Assembly (NCBI GenBank): GCA_050953105.1
Contig: JBMNMA010000001.1
Span: 401,983-465,982 of the forward strand
DNA: 64,000 nt
Origin: Eubacteriales bacterium
GTDB taxonomy: Bacteria > Bacillota > Clostridia > Oscillospirales > CAG-382
Direction of reading: 5' to 3'
How positions within the stretch are numbered: the first letter of the stretch is position 1; the number at the start of each line of letters is the position of its first letter. The notes below the pieces were generated by a model, which was not told where the DNA came from, made no database searches, and was given only the letters and a program-made list of their open reading frames with translations. Below are positions 2,760 through 44,513 of the stretch, piece by piece. The translations under genes were made by a program, and so were the position numbers.

Positions 2760-2788
2760 TTGCATTTTATAAAAATATGTGGTAAAAT
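2760..2788 (+). promoter_or_regulatory. Sigma-A type promoter for spo0A
   Basis: TTGCAT, 17-nt spacer, TAAAAT, with a TGn extended -10 (tgTGgTAAAAT). It lies about 30 nt upstream of the spo0A ATG and its purine-rich RBS (agagggaaggataagga). Confidence 0.6.
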
Positions 2789-2819: not shown

Positions 2820-3599
2820 ATGGATAACAATCAAACAAAAGCGAAAGTGATTTTAGTCGATTCGTCAAGCGAGTTCCGCACCCAGTGTGCCGCCCAGCTT
2901 CGCAAACACGGCATTGAAATCGTAGCAGAAGCTGCCGAAAAAAATGAGGCCTTTGCCAAGATAGCACGATACAAGCCGCAGGTAGTCCTATCCGAGCTAT
3001 ACATAGGCAAGTTCGACGGCGTGCAGCTTATACGCAACTGCAAAAAGCAGCTTGGTGACGCTTTTCCGGCATTTATAATGCTTGCGTCTTTTAACAACCA
3101 GAATCTTTTTGAAGAATGTGTCGAAGCGGGGGCTGCTTACTGCATGATTAAGCCTCTTGATTTCACATTCCTTGCCGAAAGAGTGATAAGGTTGGCTGAA
3201 AAAGGCAGAAGAAGGGGAATGGCGAACGTGCCAGGCGACTTCGACCTTGAAAGTCAGGTTACCAAAATAATTCACCAGATAGGGGTTCCCGCCCACATAA
3301 AAGGATATCAATACCTCCGGACCGCTATAATAATGGCGATAAACGACACGGATATTATAAATTCGGTGACCAAAGTATTATACCCTACGGTGGCTAAACA
3401 GTATTCCACCACCTCCTCAAGGGTTGAGCGGGCTATACGCCATGCTATTGAGGTGGCCTGGGACAGAGGGGATTTAGACGTGTTAAACTCCTTTTTCGGC
3501 TATACTGTCCAAAACTCACGGGGAAAGCCCACCAACAGCGAATTTATTGCAATGATTGCCGACAATTTACGGTTAAAGAACAAAGCCCTTACCGTTTGA
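2820..3599 (+). CDS. spo0A: Sporulation master regulator Spo0A (atypical receiver domain)
   Basis: The C-terminal domain carries Spo0A-specific strings: [53 protein letters not shown]. An N-terminal CheY-like receiver is present but has Glu at the expected phospho-Asp position (see findings). Confidence 0.9.
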
Positions 3600-3640: not shown

Positions 3641-3672
3641 AACGCTCCGGGAAATAATGCCGGAGCGTTTTG
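3641..3672 (+). terminator. Rho-independent terminator after spo0A
   Basis: aacgctccgg-gaaataatg-ccggagcgtttt. Confidence 0.8.
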
Positions 3673-3682
3673 TCAATTTTAA

Positions 3683-3711
3683 TTGACTTGACAAGCCCGG
3701 TGTGATATATT
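3683..3711 (+). promoter_or_regulatory. Sigma-A type promoter for the 3744 gene
   Basis: TTGACT, 17-nt spacer, TATATT, with an extended TG (gTGaTATATT). Confidence 0.55.
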
Positions 3712-3743
3712 TAATCAAAGACAAGTTTTATGGAGGAAAATAT

Positions 3744-5027
3744 ATGCATTCCAAGGAATTTTGCTTTTCGGTTATACCCGCTGTCAGGGTGTCATCGAAA
3801 GTCAAGCCCGAAATACGCCTTTATTCCGAAACGGCGGACGGAGTGAGAATTGGTGTTTACAAAGGTGAAAACCTTCTGAAAAAATACATTTTCGCCCTTG
3901 AAAAGGGAATTGTCAGAAGTGTGTTTATCGATCTTTCCTATGCTTCCGGCGACATTACCCTTGTGTTTGACTACCTTAAAGGCGAAAAAGTTGTTCACAC
4001 CGAAAATTACGCTTATCAGGTGGTGGACACCTCCCTGCCTTCCACAACCCTTATGGATGGCTGCTGGGTTTCTATTTACCACTGGAGCGAAGACGAGGGA
4101 AGATATTTTAACAAAGCCCTTAAAACAATGAACGACGAGGATTTTAAAGACCATATCCGGGCAATGGCTCCTGTGGGAATTAAAGGTGTTATTATTCAAA
4201 ACGTATTTGATTCCACAGCCTACGCCGGCAGCCACGACATGAAAAACACCGGCTACGACGGCAAGGCTTTTTATCCTTCCAAGCTCTACCCCGGCAGGGT
4301 TGAAATTACCGCCAAAGACCCGGTGGAGGCTATACTTTCGGCTGCCGACGAATGCGGCATGCATGTTCTGGTAGGCGTGGGACTTTACGCCTGGTTTGAC
4401 TTTTCTCCCGAATCCCTTAAATGGCACAAGGAAGTTGCCACAGAGCTTTATGAAATGTACGGCCATCATAAGTCCTTTTACGGCTGGTATATATCCGAGG
4501 AAATTTTCGGCGCATTGTATGCCGAATGGGACAGGGTGCCCTATGAAAAATACACGGATATAGCCGACTTTTTCAGGGAATTCAAGGCTTTTGTCAAAAA
4601 CCTCACCCCCACAAAGCCGGTTGCTCTTGCACCCAACAACATTAACTTTCAGTATTACGAAAGAGAATGGCAGACAATTCTTCCCAATATAGACATTCTC
4701 ATTCCCTTTGCATTTGCCAGAGACCTTGAGCATCTTAACGTTATCGACATTAAGCGGATCTGCGAGGAATGCGGCACCCATATGTGGGTGGATATGGAGG
4801 TTTTCCAAAACCCCTTCCCTAACGGACTTATTCCCAAAGGCATTGACGAGCTTATTAAGGAAATACGCATTTATGACGACGTGGAGCAGATTTACGGCTA
4901 CCAGTTTACCGGAATGCTCAATCCCCCCGAGTCCCCCTTTGATTTAGGTGGAGAACCTGCTAAAAATCTTTATAAGGGTTATAAAAAATATTACGACGAA
5001 TTTTTAAGCGAGCAAAACAAAAAGTAA
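3744..5027 (+). CDS. DUF4434-like (glycoside-hydrolase-like TIM barrel) protein, no signal peptide
   Basis: ORF 3702..5027. ATG 3744 is preceded by GGAGG at 3732. The family call rests on remembered motifs (..GIKGVIIQNVFDS.., ..YGWYISEE..) and is not verified. Confidence 0.5.
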   Translation: MHSKEFCFSVIPAVRVSSKVKPEIRLYSETADGVRIGVYKGENLLKKYIFALEKGIVRSVFIDLSYASGDITLVFDYLKGEKVVHTENYAYQVVDTSLPSTTLMDGCWVSIYHWSEDEGRYFNKALKTMNDEDFKDHIRAMAPVGIKGVIIQNVFDSTAYAGSHDMKNTGYDGKAFYPSKLYPGRVEITAKDPVEAILSAADECGMHVLVGVGLYAWFDFSPESLKWHKEVATELYEMYGHHKSFYGWYISEEIFGALYAEWDRVPYEKYTDIADFFREFKAFVKNLTPTKPVALAPNNINFQYYEREWQTILPNIDILIPFAFARDLEHLNVIDIKRICEECGTHMWVDMEVFQNPFPNGLIPKGIDELIKEIRIYDDVEQIYGYQFTGMLNPPESPFDLGGEPAKNLYKGYKKYYDEFLSEQNKK

Positions 5028-16108: not shown

Positions 16109-16134
16109 CTGACCATCAGTTGGCGGAGGAAAAC

Positions 16135-16980
16135 ATGGACTCCACAAAAAAGAAATTTTTAACCTTAAAAGCTGCCGAAATGCGACGGCTTATAATCGAG
16201 GCGGTGTATCACGCCCAAAGCGGACACCCCGGCGGCTCCCTTTCCAGCGCAGACATACTGACCTATCTTTATTTTGATAAGATGAACGTGTCACCGTCAA
16301 ACCCCCGTGACCCCGAACGGGACAGGTTTGTCCTGTCCAAAGGCCACTGCTGCCCGGCTTTATATTCGGCGCTGGCTCTTTCGGGTTATTTCCCCGTGGA
16401 AGACCTTAAAACCTTCCGCCACCTGGGATCCCATCTTCAGGGCCACCCCGACATGAATAAAACCAACGGTGTTGAAATGTCCACCGGTTCATTAGGTCAG
16501 GGCTTTTCCGCCGCCTGCGGCATGGCAGCGGCCGGAAAGGTTTACGGCAAGAACTACCGGGTATATACCATCCTGGGGGACGGCGAATGCGAAGAAGGCC
16601 AGGTTTGGGAGGCTGCCATGTTTGCGGCCCACTACAAGCTTGACAATATAACCGCTTTTCTTGACTTTAACGGCTATCAGATTGACGGGGCCATTCAGGA
16701 CGTGTTGAACCCCACCCCCTTTGACGAAAAGTTTAAGGCCTTTGGCTGGCATGTGGAAGTAATAGACGGCCACGACTTTGACCAGATTGAAAATGCGGTC
16801 AAAACCGGTGAAAAGTCGGGAAAACCCCTTATGATTATTGCCAAGACGGTAAAGGGCAAAGGGGTTTCATATATGGAAAATAATTATACCTGGCACGGCA
16901 AAGCCCCAAAAGAGGCGGAATATCTTGTCGCCTGCAAGGAACTGGACGAAAAGCTGGAACAGTTAAGGAGGGGTGAATAA
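16135..16980 (+). CDS. Transketolase, N-terminal (TPP-binding) subunit
   Basis: SGHPGGSLS, LSKGH, ILGDGECEEGQVWEA. ATG 16135 follows GGAGG. Confidence 0.9.
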   Translation: MDSTKKKFLTLKAAEMRRLIIEAVYHAQSGHPGGSLSSADILTYLYFDKMNVSPSNPRDPERDRFVLSKGHCCPALYSALALSGYFPVEDLKTFRHLGSHLQGHPDMNKTNGVEMSTGSLGQGFSAACGMAAAGKVYGKNYRVYTILGDGECEEGQVWEAAMFAAHYKLDNITAFLDFNGYQIDGAIQDVLNPTPFDEKFKAFGWHVEVIDGHDFDQIENAVKTGEKSGKPLMIIAKTVKGKGVSYMENNYTWHGKAPKEAEYLVACKELDEKLEQLRRGE

Positions 16981-17918
16981 TGGCGGATATTGCAACAAGG
17001 GTATCCTACGGCAGAGCGCTGGTGGATTTAGGCGCAAAATACGACTTTATGGTCCTTGACGCCGACCTTTCGGGTTCCACCAATACGGGTAAGTTTGCCG
17101 AAAAATACCCCGAACGGTTTTTAAACTGCGGAATTGCCGAAGGCAATATGATGTCAATAGCAGCAGGTATCGCTGCCACCGGCATTCCCGTGTTTGCCTC
17201 CACCTTTGCCATGTTTGCAGCCGGAAGAGCCTTTGAGCAGGTCAGAAACTCCATAGGCTACCCTGCCCTTAATGTAAAGGTTTGTGCCTCCCATGCAGGT
17301 ATTACCGTAGGCGAGGACGGAGCATCCCACCAGTGCTTAGAAGATATCGCCCTTATGCGGGCAATCCCGGGAATGACTATAGTTTCCCCTGCCGACGATA
17401 CCGAAGCCTATGCGGCCATTGAGCCTATATTAAACCACTCTGGCCCCGTTTACTGCCGTTTGGGAAGACATCCGGTGCCGGTGGTGTTTGATCCGGCAAC
17501 TTATAAATTCGAACTCGGAAAAGCCCTCCCCATAAGAGAAGGGGGCGACTGCGTGGTTTTTGCCACCGGTGTTATGGTGTCAAAAGCCATTGAGGCTTAT
17601 GATATACTGAAAGCCGAGGGAATTAATATTTCGGTGGTTAATATACACACCATAAAGCCCATTGATGCCGAAACCATAATAAAATATGCAGCAAAAACCG
17701 GCAACGTGGTTACCGCAGAGGAGCATTCCACCATCGGCGGCTTAGGCTCGGCGGTATGCGAGGTGCTGGCTGAAAACCTGCCTACAAAGGTTGCCCGTGT
17801 GGGTATTCCCGACATATTCGGTCAAAGCGGCAAGGCGGGCGAACTGCTTAACTACTACGGCCTTAACGGCAACGGCATTGCCGCAAAGGTAAAACAACTG
17901 TTGGGGGTTTCAAAATGA
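16980..17918 (+). CDS. Transketolase, C-terminal (pyrimidine-binding) subunit
   Basis: CGIAEGNMMSIAAG, EDGASHQ. Overlaps the previous stop (TAATG). Confidence 0.9.
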   Translation: MADIATRVSYGRALVDLGAKYDFMVLDADLSGSTNTGKFAEKYPERFLNCGIAEGNMMSIAAGIAATGIPVFASTFAMFAAGRAFEQVRNSIGYPALNVKVCASHAGITVGEDGASHQCLEDIALMRAIPGMTIVSPADDTEAYAAIEPILNHSGPVYCRLGRHPVPVVFDPATYKFELGKALPIREGGDCVVFATGVMVSKAIEAYDILKAEGINISVVNIHTIKPIDAETIIKYAAKTGNVVTAEEHSTIGGLGSAVCEVLAENLPTKVARVGIPDIFGQSGKAGELLNYYGLNGNGIAAKVKQLLGVSK

Positions 17919-40964: not shown

Positions 40965-42260
40965 GTGTATGATATGATAATACATATAGTCAAGCCGGGA
41001 GAAACGCTATATTCCATTGCCCGTGAATACGGCGTTTCGGTAGAGGTGCTGGCTATTAACAATTCGGTGTCGGACCCGGAAAGGCTGGCGGTGGGGCAGT
41101 CGATTGCGGTGGTTATACCCACTGTTGTCCACACCGTTCAGCCGGGGGACACCCTTGTGTCCATAGCCAACGATTACGGCACCACATTAAACCAGCTATT
41201 TAAAAACAACCTTATTTTAAAAGGGCGGACGGATATTTTTGAGGGGCAGACAATTATTATCTACATTGACCGGGAACCGGTGGGGTCGTTTCAGCTTGGC
41301 GGTTACGCCTATCCCTTTATAACCGAGGAGCTTTTAAATTTGTCCCTTCCCTTTATGAACTACCTTATGCCCTTTACCTATGGCTTTACCCTGACAGGGG
41401 AACTTATACCCCTTGATGATGAGGCCATGATAAACCGGGCCCGTGTCTACGGCACCCGTCCGGTGCTTCACCTTTCCACCCTTGACGAAAACGACGTGTT
41501 TTCCACCGAAAACGCCACCTATTTGCTTGATAACCGTCAGCTTTGGGACGTGCTGCTCGGAAACCTTATTAATACCATGCAAAGCAAAGGTTATTTTGCC
41601 CTGGATGTGGATTTTGAATTTTTGGGTAAGGAAAACGCCCAGAAATATGTGGAATTCGTTACTTTTCTGCGGGAACGCTTAAATCCCTTAGGGTATGGCG
41701 TTATTGTCGCTCTTGCCCCCAAAACATCCGACGACCAGCCGGGACTGTTATACGAAGGCCACGACTTTAAAGGGCTTGGCGAGGCGGCCAACGCCGTGCT
41801 GATTATGACCTATGAATGGGGCTACACCTACGGTCCTCCGCTGGCGGTGTCCCCAATACCCAATATGCGCCAGGTGATCGAATATGCCATAACCCGAATT
41901 GATCCTGCCAAAATTTTTGAGGGGATTTCAAACTACGGTTATGATTTCACCCTGCCCTATGTAAAAGGGGAATCGGTGGCCACCTCCCTTTCCACCCGTG
42001 AGGCAATAGACCTTGCCATTGCCACCGGATCTGAGGTTATGTATGACGAAAACGCCATGGCCCCCTTTTTCTATTACTCAAAAGACGGGCAAAGCCATGT
42101 GGTGTGGTTTGAAGATGCCCGGTCGATAAAGGCAAAACTTGAACTGCTGCCGATCTACGGCTTAAAGGGGGCGCTGTATTGGAACCTTAACCGGGAAAAC
42201 AACCAAAACCTTACGGTTATAAATTCTCTCATAAACCGCTCCCCTGCGTCATTATTATAA
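40965..42260 (+). CDS. Two LysM domains plus a GH18 domain; spore cortex-lytic YaaH/SleL-like hydrolase
   Basis: Two LysM repeats (HIVKPGETLYSIAREYGVS..; HTVQPGDTLVSIANDYGTT..). GH18 catalytic block FALDVDFEF. The start is GTG 40965 or ATG 40974. Confidence 0.85.
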   Translation: MYDMIIHIVKPGETLYSIAREYGVSVEVLAINNSVSDPERLAVGQSIAVVIPTVVHTVQPGDTLVSIANDYGTTLNQLFKNNLILKGRTDIFEGQTIIIYIDREPVGSFQLGGYAYPFITEELLNLSLPFMNYLMPFTYGFTLTGELIPLDDEAMINRARVYGTRPVLHLSTLDENDVFSTENATYLLDNRQLWDVLLGNLINTMQSKGYFALDVDFEFLGKENAQKYVEFVTFLRERLNPLGYGVIVALAPKTSDDQPGLLYEGHDFKGLGEAANAVLIMTYEWGYTYGPPLAVSPIPNMRQVIEYAITRIDPAKIFEGISNYGYDFTLPYVKGESVATSLSTREAIDLAIATGSEVMYDENAMAPFFYYSKDGQSHVVWFEDARSIKAKLELLPIYGLKGALYWNLNRENNQNLTVINSLINRSPASLL

Positions 42261-42327
42261 AGATTGTTCCCCGTTTTTCCGTGACATGCCAAAACAACAA
42301 TAAAAAACAATAAAATTCACACCCCCC

Positions 42328-42361
42328 TTCGACATACGTTTTAGACACGCCGTATTATAAT
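42328..42361 (+). promoter_or_regulatory. Spo0A-dependent-type promoter of spoIIE (0A boxes plus a 21-bp spacer)
   Basis: TTCGACA (reverse 0A box, also a TCGACA -35-like hexamer) at 42328-42334. A second 0A-like TTAGACA at 42341-42347. TATAAT at 42356-42361. The -35-like to -10 spacer is 21 nt. Confidence 0.6.
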
Positions 42362-42392
42362 GCCCACACTAACGGGAAAAGGACGGTTGAAC

Positions 42393-44513
42393 ATGCAGGG
42401 CAGGGCGATTTTAACGGAAAATGTCAAAAAACGGCTTGGGGAACTGTTGTGGGGGGTATTTGCTTTATCCCTTTCTCTATCAGAGGCAAAGTGCGGGGTT
42501 TATCCCTTTGGGCTGGCTTTGCTTTGCGGCTATAACGGAACTCTTTTTCCGGTGTTTGCCGGAGTTTTTGCGGCGGGTTTTATTTTGGGGGAAAACGGAC
42601 TTCATTATTCCCTCCTGGCCATGGTGGCCTTCGGCATAAGATGGCTTGGGGCAAGGAAAGACAAGGGCAACTCCCTGTGGATAAAGCTGACGGCGGCTTT
42701 TATTGTAACGCTGGCGTTAGGGCTTAAGGAATTTACCTTACGAAACGTGCTTTTTGAATCGGCAGCCAGAGCCGGCAGCGTGTTTTCTATTTTACCTTTG
42801 TTTACCCTTTTGTTTTCCCTTGACCTCAAACAAAAAAGGATAACAAGGGAAATTTCCGCCTTAGGCTGGGTATATGCCATAGTCAAGGCAGCATCGGTAT
42901 GGGCGGTGGGCGTGTTTAAGCCCCAGCTTGCCGCGGGGGGATTAATAACGTTGTATTTTGCCCGGGAGTCGGCCTTTTTCGGCGGAATGTGCGGCTTTGC
43001 CGCCGGGATGGCAGCAGGCATAATTTATATGCCGGTGCTGGGGATTGCCGGTCTTGCCTATGGCATATTCTGCGACGAAATGAGGCGTTTTGCCTTGTTT
43101 TTTGCCTCCTCCCTTTCCATATCATCGGGGGTTTACCTTGCCTCATTGTCCGGGGCGTTCCCCGAATTTATATGGGCGCTGGCCGGGTTTTTCATTTTCG
43201 GCATTGTCCGGCCAAGGCTTAAGCCGGTATTAAAGGAGCAGACGGGTAAAAAGGACAAGGCTAGAACCTTAAAAAAGCTGTCGGCGGCTTTTTCCACATT
43301 GTCGGAGGTATTTTACGTTGAAAACCTGCCGCCGCAAAAGTCGGATATATCGGCGGCATTGAAAACCTCCCTGTTTTCTCTTTGCGATAAATGCCGTCAT
43401 TGCGGCGCAAGATGCTCCCTTGACAAATACGATATGGTAAACCACCTTACCGAAATTTCCTGTGGTAATGAGGACGGCCTTCCCGACCATTTTGCCCGGT
43501 TCTGTCCCAATTCCGATCTGCTTGTAGGCAGGGCGTTGTCTTTGGGAAAGGTGAAACGCTCTGAGGGGGAACGGGAGGCAAGGCTGCTTACCGAAGGCTA
43601 TAACTCCATTGCCCGGCTGCTGTGCACGGCGGGAGAAAAAGAAGAGGAGGAGGGAATAAATAACCGGGAGCTTTCAAAAAAAGCCGCAGAGGTGCTAAAA
43701 AAGCTATCAATTCCCTACACCTTTGTGTGTGTAAGGGGAATGAGGGCGTTGAATGTGTCGGTTTACGGCACCGATATGGCAAAGATAAACTGCTCCGGAG
43801 CGGAAATACGGGAAAACCTGTCCAAAGTTCTGGGTAAAAACCTTTCTTTGCCCGAATTTATAAACCGGGAAAACGGCTTTGAAATGATATTGCGCACAAT
43901 CCCCGCCGTCCGGCTTGAGTATGCCAAGGCGGAATCATCAAAGGCCGGGGAACCGGTGTCGGGTGACACCATTGTAACCTTTGAAAGCGACTCCTTGATG
44001 TTTTACTCCCTCCTTGCCGACGGCATGGGTTCGGGAAGGGACGCGGCCTATTCTTCCCGCCTTGCTGCGCTGTTTTTGGAAAAACTGATAACCGCCGGCG
44101 GGGACAAAAAGGAAGCGCTGTGCATGCTAAATAAGCTTTTGCTGGTTAAGAAAAACGAGGTTTACACCACCATAGACCTGCTTGAAATCGACCGGCTGTC
44201 GGGTGCCGCCTGTTTAATAAAAGCCGGCGCTGCCCCAACCTATTTATATCGGGACGGCAAATGCTACAAGCTGGAATCGTCCTCCCCTCCGGCAGGGGTG
44301 ATTGAGGATTTAAAGGTAACCCAGACAAGCCTTAACCTTAAAAAGGGGGACATGCTGGTTATGGTAACCGACGGGGTGGTTCCCAAGGACGGGAATTTAT
44401 ACCTGCCGAAAGACAAAAAAACCGCCTCTGCCTGTGCGGCGGCTATTCTTGAGGAACGAAAGGAATTTGCCTGCCGGGACGATATGTCGGTTTGCGTAAT
44501 ACGGGCGTTTTAA
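42393..44513 (+). CDS. spoIIE: Stage II sporulation protein E (membrane PP2C phosphatase)
   Basis: About 10 TM at the N-terminus. C-terminal PP2C block GDTIVTFESDSLMFYSLLADGMGSG..., ..DGV..DDMSV. ORF-track ATG 42360 overlaps the -10 box, so ATG 42393 is preferred. Confidence 0.88.
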   Translation: MQGRAILTENVKKRLGELLWGVFALSLSLSEAKCGVYPFGLALLCGYNGTLFPVFAGVFAAGFILGENGLHYSLLAMVAFGIRWLGARKDKGNSLWIKLTAAFIVTLALGLKEFTLRNVLFESAARAGSVFSILPLFTLLFSLDLKQKRITREISALGWVYAIVKAASVWAVGVFKPQLAAGGLITLYFARESAFFGGMCGFAAGMAAGIIYMPVLGIAGLAYGIFCDEMRRFALFFASSLSISSGVYLASLSGAFPEFIWALAGFFIFGIVRPRLKPVLKEQTGKKDKARTLKKLSAAFSTLSEVFYVENLPPQKSDISAALKTSLFSLCDKCRHCGARCSLDKYDMVNHLTEISCGNEDGLPDHFARFCPNSDLLVGRALSLGKVKRSEGEREARLLTEGYNSIARLLCTAGEKEEEEGINNRELSKKAAEVLKKLSIPYTFVCVRGMRALNVSVYGTDMAKINCSGAEIRENLSKVLGKNLSLPEFINRENGFEMILRTIPAVRLEYAKAESSKAGEPVSGDTIVTFESDSLMFYSLLADGMGSGRDAAYSSRLAALFLEKLITAGGDKKEALCMLNKLLLVKKNEVYTTIDLLEIDRLSGAACLIKAGAAPTYLYRDGKCYKLESSSPPAGVIEDLKVTQTSLNLKKGDMLVMVTDGVVPKDGNLYLPKDKKTASACAAAILEERKEFACRDDMSVCVIRAF

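Follow-up and report, generated by a model that had tools for sequence, protein, structure and literature searches.

A 64,000-nucleotide stretch from an Eubacteriales bacterium (contig JBMNMA010000001.1, positions 401,983 to 465,982 of the forward strand; hereafter the window) carries a spo0A gene whose product has kept both domains of the endospore master switch Spo0A, with glutamate in place of the aspartate that is normally phosphorylated. By sequence definition, the open reading frame (ORF) at 2820-3599 is a full-length Spo0A that lacks the phospho-acceptor aspartate. Alignments and a structural model agree in placing it among the aspartate-less receivers (ALRs), that is, proteins with a receiver fold and a residue other than Asp at the acceptor position. 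Because the change to Glu is real, conserved and apparently selected, spore formation in this uncultivated lineage of gut or digester Clostridia is probably not triggered by the usual phosphorylation signal. On balance, we favor a phosphorylation-independent Spo0A whose activity would follow its own abundance, by way of autoregulation, or a non-phosphoryl input to the receiver.

The ORF scores 256.6 bits against the TIGR02875 spore_0_A equivalog (cutoff 200), with residues 7-256 aligned to model positions 2-261 of 262, and both Pfam domains of the family are recognized (Table 1). Over the last 115 residues the product aligns with the experimental structures 1LQ1 and 1FC3 of the Spo0A DNA-binding domain (E = 4e-48), the recognition helix being identical, and the Spo0A_C domain is almost invariant throughout the clade of relatives described below. 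The exact protein is deposited at NCBI as MGI6715922.1 under the label ‘MAG: Eubacteriales bacterium’, and its relatives come from Oscillospirales-type metagenome-assembled genomes (MAGs).

Three of the five key residues of the phosphorylation site are replaced. Relative to B. subtilis Spo0A, D10 corresponds to Asp14, D11 to Ser15, D56 to Glu59, the conserved Thr/Ser to Ala89 and the conserved Lys to Lys111, such that the acceptor Asp, the Mg-binding Asp and the Thr/Ser are all substituted. Five independent alignments concur on the columns of E59, S15, A89 and K111: a phmmer alignment against the solved Spo0A receiver 5WQ0, CheY and other receivers; a BLASTP alignment against B. subtilis Spo0A; and three MAFFT alignments with 120, ~105 and 311 relatives. 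Profile and pairwise alignments alike put Glu, and no conserved Asp, in the acceptor column. A misalignment that hides another Asp as the true acceptor was considered and ruled out, since all five alignments are consistent with one another and with the predicted secondary structure. The motifs ‘DG’ and ‘KP-x-D’, of which Asp66 and Asp114 form part, are conserved in canonical Spo0A as well, and neither Asp is a phospho-acceptor. The original prediction for this gene, which was made from the DNA letters, had called the C-terminal half Spo0A and had named the altered active-site residues. The TIGR02875, PF08769 and 1LQ1/1FC3 matches bear out the former. Direct reading of the codons, together with the alignments, confirms all of the latter with their coordinates, and the Glu acceptor survives the profile alignment.

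An AlphaFold2 model of the receiver shows the (beta-alpha)5 topology, with block means of the predicted local distance difference test (pLDDT) of ~73-95 and strands at residues 8-13 (beta1), 55-59 (beta3), 84-89 (beta4) and 105-110 (beta5). D14 and S15 come right after beta1, E59 ends beta3, A89 ends beta4 and K111 follows directly on beta5; the active-site geometry of the receiver, as modelled, is canonical. Confidence in the modelled DNA-binding domain is low, as the alignment hardly varies there, and we therefore infer nothing about the inter-domain arrangement.

Table 1 Features of the spo0A and spoIIE regions, in window coordinates.
Feature	Position	Strand	Basis and remarks
Perfect 0A box TGTCGAA	2694..2700	+	120-126 bp upstream of the spo0A start codon
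Candidate sigma-A-type promoter: TTGCAT, 17-nt spacer, TG-n-TAAAAT	2760..2788	+	Read by eye; absent from the consensus scan
spo0A coding sequence, aspartate-less variant	2820..3599	+	259 aa plus stop; TIGR02875, Pfam Response_reg and Spo0A_C
Receiver (REC) domain, residues 10-122	2847..3185	+	PF00072, 50.9 bits (cutoff 30.2)
Acidic-pocket pair: D14 (GAT, 2859-2861) retained, S15 (TCG, 2862-2864) in place of the second, Mg-binding Asp	2859..2864	+	Alignments
Glu59 (GAG), phospho-acceptor position (B. subtilis D56)	2994..2996	+	Alignments and model
A89 (GCG, 3084-3086) at the conserved Thr/Ser switch position, then S90	3084..3089	+	Alignments; codons checked
K111 (AAG, 3150-3152), then P112; receiver Lys-Pro, retained	3150..3155	+	Alignments
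Spo0A_C DNA-binding domain, residues 147-250	3258..3569	+	PF08769, 156.5 bits; recognition helix intact
Likely spo0A terminator: perfect 10-bp hairpin (3641-3650 with 3660-3669), then TTGT	3641..3673	+	Read by eye; absent from the terminator scan
0A box (TTCGACA on the + strand)	42328..42334	-	17 nt upstream of a TATTAT -10-like hexamer before spoIIE (-35 position); candidate target promoter
spoIIE homologue, 717 aa as listed; sporulation-specific, candidate Spo0A target	42360..44513	+	PF07228, 89 bits

In our view, there is a negligible probability that faulty sequencing or assembly produced the GAG codon. Look-ups of the exact protein found all 259 residues encoded on four contigs that were independently assembled from four samples. 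At the codon level, GAG recurs in two relatives, on three contigs of one that is 93% identical and on one contig of another that is 77% identical, and Glu occupies the acceptor position in 25 of the 25 members of three related 90% clusters. On these grounds, an assembly error, which the original prediction had itself raised as a way in which it could fail, was rejected.

Glutamate at the acceptor position is a property of a group of proteins rather than of one gene. We compared the query with its 120 best homologues (72-95% identity), all of them from MAGs labelled Clostridia, Eubacteriales or Ruminococcaceae. Counting the query, the acceptor is Asp in 97 proteins, Glu in 23 and Gly in one. 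The first acidic residue is retained in all 120 homologues, while the second pocket position is never Asp, in them or in the query (S 94, G 10, C 7, A 5, T 2, N 2, P 1). The incomplete acidic pocket of the original prediction is thus real but not special to the query. All 97 Asp-type sisters keep the acceptor Asp even though they lack the second pocket Asp, mostly with the signature D-S-D-A-K. Glu is fixed across ~23 clusters at 90% identity, and the identity of Glu-type proteins to the query reaches down to ~71%. In a neighbor-joining ordering, the Glu-type proteins adjoin each other around the query in two runs, with four Asp-type sequences between them, and the remaining Asp-type proteins come after these runs. 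Glu-type and Asp-type receivers differ consistently at only three positions: 59 (E/D), 74 (C/A) and 110 (I/L).

Several individual features of these relatives were also recorded. The Gly acceptor belongs to P0050, a 90% cluster that is 78% identical to the query and lies in the Asp-type sister group, with the signature D-C-G-A-K. Cysteines at positions 23 (alpha1), 100 and 101 (alpha4) and 108 (beta5) of the receiver are invariant or nearly so across the clade, in Glu-type and Asp-type proteins alike, and are lacking in B. subtilis Spo0A. In the query they fall at C23 (2886-2888), C100-V101 (3117-3122; position 101 is Val) and C108 (3141-3143). These cysteines could provide a redox or metal input, or could be merely structural. 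Among hits in the library of representatives, four proteins of 394-454 aa (P0122, P0123, P0124 and P0130) each show three or four separate regions of similarity to the query, including repeats of Spo0A_C-like segments, and may be tandem-domain proteins or fused gene calls.

A wider set was built from 50%-identity representatives and the best 80 GTDB species-representative loci (at most 67% identity), the latter from Oscillospiraceae, Acutalibacteraceae and Ruminococcus-type gut and rumen MAGs. Among 311 sequences, Asp-less Spo0A occurs in ~23 well-aligned lineages, and 14 of these have Glu, as compared to the ~25% expected from single-nucleotide changes (P = 3e-4). This excess of Glu points to selection that keeps an acidic side chain at the acceptor position. 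One of the Asp-less genes (L080, 8001-8765), from Ruminococcaceae bacterium HV4-5-B5C (FXYJ02000002.1), encodes a Spo0A with the signature N-D-N-S-A, which has substitutions at the first acidic position, at the acceptor and at the Lys, and lies right after spoIVB. Its record title does not carry the ‘MAG’ label; if the strain is cultured, it could make an Asp-less Spo0A amenable to experiment.

Strong purifying selection acts on the receiver, which is not decaying. Relative to the 93%-identical relative, its nonsynonymous divergence (dN) is low at 0.069, while its synonymous divergence (dS) is saturated at 1.77 or more, giving a dN/dS ratio (omega) of at most ~0.04; with synonymous sites saturated even at this distance, omega is an upper bound only. 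The corresponding dN of the DNA-binding domain is 0.019, and the core positions of the receiver are invariant in the clade. When Glu-type and Asp-type proteins are compared, the loop after the acceptor (residues 60-66) shows the largest gain in variability and is much more variable in the Glu-type (1.26 vs 0.42 bits), alpha4 is conserved alike in both (0.43 vs 0.45 bits) and beta5 shows low variability in both (0.26 vs 0.15 bits). A formal test for relaxed constraint on the phosphotransfer face gave a borderline result (Mann-Whitney P = 0.052).

The query gene is most likely the orthologous spo0A of its uncultivated Clostridia lineage, given a score above the equivalog cutoff, a spoIVB-linked relative of 76% identity, no two-locus genome among the best 80 species representatives and no second copy in the stretches around the related loci. 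The linked relative is the Asp-type P0019, which follows immediately on spoIVB, with spoIIP and gpr close by. In the query genome, spoIVB is not upstream of spo0A; an EF-G-like gene and an ALGX-domain gene are found there, and the neighborhood further includes a DUF4434 gene, dapA, queA and miaA. Synteny with spoIVB is only partly useful as an orthology test, because even among the Asp-type genes of the group a minority keep this adjacency (13 adjacent, 52 not); the Asp-less genes L061 and L080 are spoIVB-adjacent too. We found no second spo0A copy in the 64-kb window, none within 8-10 kb at any related locus, and no genome contributing two spo0A loci among the best 80 species representatives. 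The DNA-binding domain of the query differs by only ~8% from that of Asp-type relatives. No matches to HisKA, HATPase_c, Spo0F or Spo0B were obtained among the ~45 scanned ORFs of the window; Spo0A kinases are normally orphan genes located elsewhere in the genome.

Upstream of spo0A, the -35 ATTG and the extended -10 core of the candidate promoter are invariant in five aligned regions (three Glu-type, two Asp-type), and 0A-like boxes can be seen by eye upstream of most aligned relatives of both types. The window also holds a spoIIE homologue, preceded by a further 0A box. Judged by its sequence, SpoIIE is a full-length ORF that is strongly divergent: residues 33-677 align with almost the full TIGR02865 model at 159.8 bits, against a cutoff of 490.8. 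The listed ATG of spoIIE (42360) sits within the -10-like TATTATAAT (region 42320-42362). Since the TIGR02865 alignment begins at residue 33, the true start codon is probably further downstream. Directly upstream of spoIIE (40965-42260) lies a gene for a protein with two LysM domains and one GH18 domain, an architecture that we take to be typical of the spore-cortex-fragment lytic enzymes YaaH/SleL.

These observations can be arranged into a mechanism. Loss of the second pocket Asp would have come first, in the common ancestor of all ~120 clusters of the clade, and the acceptor would have changed to Glu later, in a subclade. In the resulting protein, a phosphoryl group from a kinase or phosphorelay would no longer be accepted at the canonical site. 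As experimental background, each of the substitutions D10A, D11A, D56A, S86A and K108A in C. difficile Spo0A significantly reduces sporulation, and D56A lowers it more than 1000-fold and abolishes phosphorylation, with low residual activity (10.1101/2022.02.07.479450); D11A, D56A and S86A affect the positions that are replaced in the query. Glu59, kept by selection, would act with Lys111 to bias the receiver toward the active, dimerization-competent state. Activity would then mainly be set by the amount of Spo0A, with the conserved sigma-A-type promoter and its 0A box as a possible source of positive feedback; alternatively or additionally, a non-phosphoryl input could act on the still-conserved receiver. 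Spo0A would finally act at 0A-box promoters such as that of spoIIE. The original prediction had likewise argued that entry into sporulation would escape the usual gating by a kinase or phosphorelay, which we still consider a reasonable inference, although parts of the argument are weakened. That Glu is a partial phosphomimetic is an assumption only. The loss of the Mg-binding Asp, taken alone, is not proof of lost phosphotransfer, because sisters with the same loss strictly keep the acceptor Asp.

Several points weigh against phosphorylation independence with retained activity. According to Green 1991, as it is summarized in PMC4395418, an Asp-to-Glu change alone is insufficient for constitutive activity of B. 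subtilis Spo0A. With the acceptor Asp kept in 97 of 97 Asp-type sisters that lack the second pocket Asp (one further protein has Gly), the degraded pocket may still support phosphorylation, and the Glu forms might simply be inactive. Receiver divergence in the Glu group is 0.39, compared with 0.22 in the Asp-type, at a DNA-binding-domain divergence of 0.05-0.10, and this higher ratio could reflect partial relaxation and no new function. The divergent SpoIIE, which falls below its equivalog cutoff, leaves the intactness of the sporulation program unproven. As for the 0A boxes, which the original prediction had taken as a sign that the DNA-binding function is still used, their total across the window is not significantly enriched (7 perfect boxes, 5 expected). 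Their placement before spo0A and spoIIE is suggestive of such use, the chance of finding two of seven boxes at these two genes being ~5e-4, as a post-hoc figure. Finally, spo0A paralogues are known: two copies occur in 10 of 118 Spo0A-encoding genomes (~9%), all Clostridiales, and three copies in one (10.1101/2022.02.25.481979), and for the query genome our examination covers the 64-kb window.

These paralogues bear directly on a different explanation, in which a canonical, phosphorylatable spo0A resides elsewhere in the genome and the Glu copy modulates it by forming heterodimers or competing for 0A boxes. The survey frequency just given makes this conceivable, as does the position of the query copy away from spoIVB; most Asp-type genes, however, also lack this adjacency. 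With the score above the Spo0A equivalog cutoff, 76% identity to a spoIVB-linked copy, a DNA-binding domain that is only ~8% removed from Asp-type relatives, no two-locus genome among the best 80 species representatives and the 8-10 kb around each related locus free of a second copy, we judge a modulating paralogue to be improbable. Somewhat less improbable, though still unlikely, is a relic or repurposed regulator in a lineage that has stopped sporulating, where Spo0A would serve as a vegetative repressor or weak DNA binder, control by phosphorylation would have become dispensable and the acceptor would have drifted to its most conservative replacement. Of 42 non-spore-forming Clostridia in a survey, 32 encode Spo0A (10.1101/2022.02.25.481979), and the Asp-less lineages recur in these mostly gut and rumen MAG groups. 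The faster evolution of the Glu-group receiver relative to the DNA-binding domain, the divergence of SpoIIE and the low residual activity of the C. difficile D56A mutant fit the same picture. Drift is difficult to reconcile with the strong purifying selection on the receiver (omega at most ~0.04) and with a Glu that is fixed, not variable, over ~23 clusters. Likewise, loss of sporulation does not sit well with a full-length spoIIE ORF that has a 0A box at -35 and a LysM-GH18 gene beside it, nor with the spoIVB, spoIIP, gpr and gerA genes of D-type relatives.

Kinase control could also persist if the protein were still phosphorylated, either on a non-canonical residue (Asp14, Asp66 or Asp114) or through unusual chemistry at Glu59. 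Asp14, Asp66, Asp114, Lys111 and Pro112 are invariant or nearly so, and the Asp-type sisters evidently manage without the second pocket Asp. Asp66 and Asp114, however, are accounted for by motifs of canonical Spo0A, the Mg-binding Asp and the Thr/Ser are both missing, and to our knowledge Glu phosphorylation has been described for no receiver domain; we consider this explanation very improbable. The favored reading, a phosphorylation-independent Spo0A, is the one we carry forward in comparing the query with known systems.

The query shares with canonical Spo0A of B. subtilis and C. difficile the two-domain architecture, the recognition helix and the 0A boxes at its own promoter and at spoIIE. 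It differs in having Glu59, Ser15 and Ala89 at the active site and in the absence of spoIVB next to spo0A. Spo0A activity has been uncoupled from the phosphorelay in the laboratory by constitutive alleles such as sad67, an engineered or selected deletion inside the receiver, whereas the receiver of the query is complete and naturally conserved. Among response regulators of sporulation-type development, WhiI and BldM of Streptomyces offer a parallel in that WhiI works with a degenerate phosphorylation pocket; both belong to the NarL/FixJ family and to actinobacterial exospores, and the resemblance is one of analogy only. The closest precedent for the acceptor itself is the ALR ChxR of Chlamydia trachomatis, which keeps the receiver fold, has Glu at the acceptor position and is constitutively active without phosphorylation (PMC4395418). 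The output domain of ChxR is of the OmpR/PhoB type, unlike that of the query, and its biology is unrelated. Glu is the commonest acceptor substitution in ALRs (26%) and can give phosphorylation-independent activity (PMC4395418). The same 2015 survey counted 7 ‘Response_reg~Spo0A_C’ ALRs among 391 Pfam 26.0 sequences, from Firmicutes (S6 Table, PMC4395418). These have the architecture of the query and lack the acceptor Asp, but they appear as a bare count, with no discussion of sequences, clade, residues or function. Beyond this supplementary-table row (PMC4395418), we found no description of an Asp-less, atypical or phosphorylation-independent Spo0A, or of D56E, in the literature searched.

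The surroundings of spo0A yielded some further observations. The gene is flanked by one for a 474-aa ALGX/SGNH-domain protein with a hydrophobic N-terminus (1109-2533) and by one for a DUF4434 protein (3702-5027). The DUF4434 gene is missing at the spo0A locus of the 93%-identical relative, indicating a recent insertion or deletion beside spo0A. Elsewhere in the window, a transketolase is split over two adjacent ORFs (16120-17918), the N-terminal half followed by the C-terminal half, and the stop of the first overlaps the start of the second.

Spo0A phosphorylation is treated as the universal entry to endospore formation, and a conserved, selected Glu-acceptor Spo0A would show that this master switch can be rewired without a kinase. 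A broader proposition, which we put forward tentatively and hold to be possible rather than probable, is that the endospore master switch no longer depends on His-Asp phosphotransfer in a whole, widely distributed clade of uncultivated Clostridia and, independently, in a dozen or more further lineages. Spo0A would there be a natural ‘phosphomimetic’ of the Glu type, and the decision to sporulate would rest with its dosage and autoregulation or with a new input to the receiver. The clade-invariant cysteines C23, C100 and C108 are candidates for such an input. If true, this would be the first departure in nature from the rule that phosphorylation controls every Spo0A. The repeated appearance of a Glu acceptor in many uncultivated Clostridia of gut, rumen and digesters takes the phenomenon beyond a one-off, and it cautions that the presence of spo0A in MAGs is, by itself, no basis for inferring kinase-controlled sporulation. 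Such a switch would be surprising to sporulation specialists and, though it is read here from sequence, it is directly testable: the natural Asp-type and Glu-type sister proteins are a ready set for swap comparisons, and together they would make a natural test case for roles of the receiver other than phosphate acceptance.

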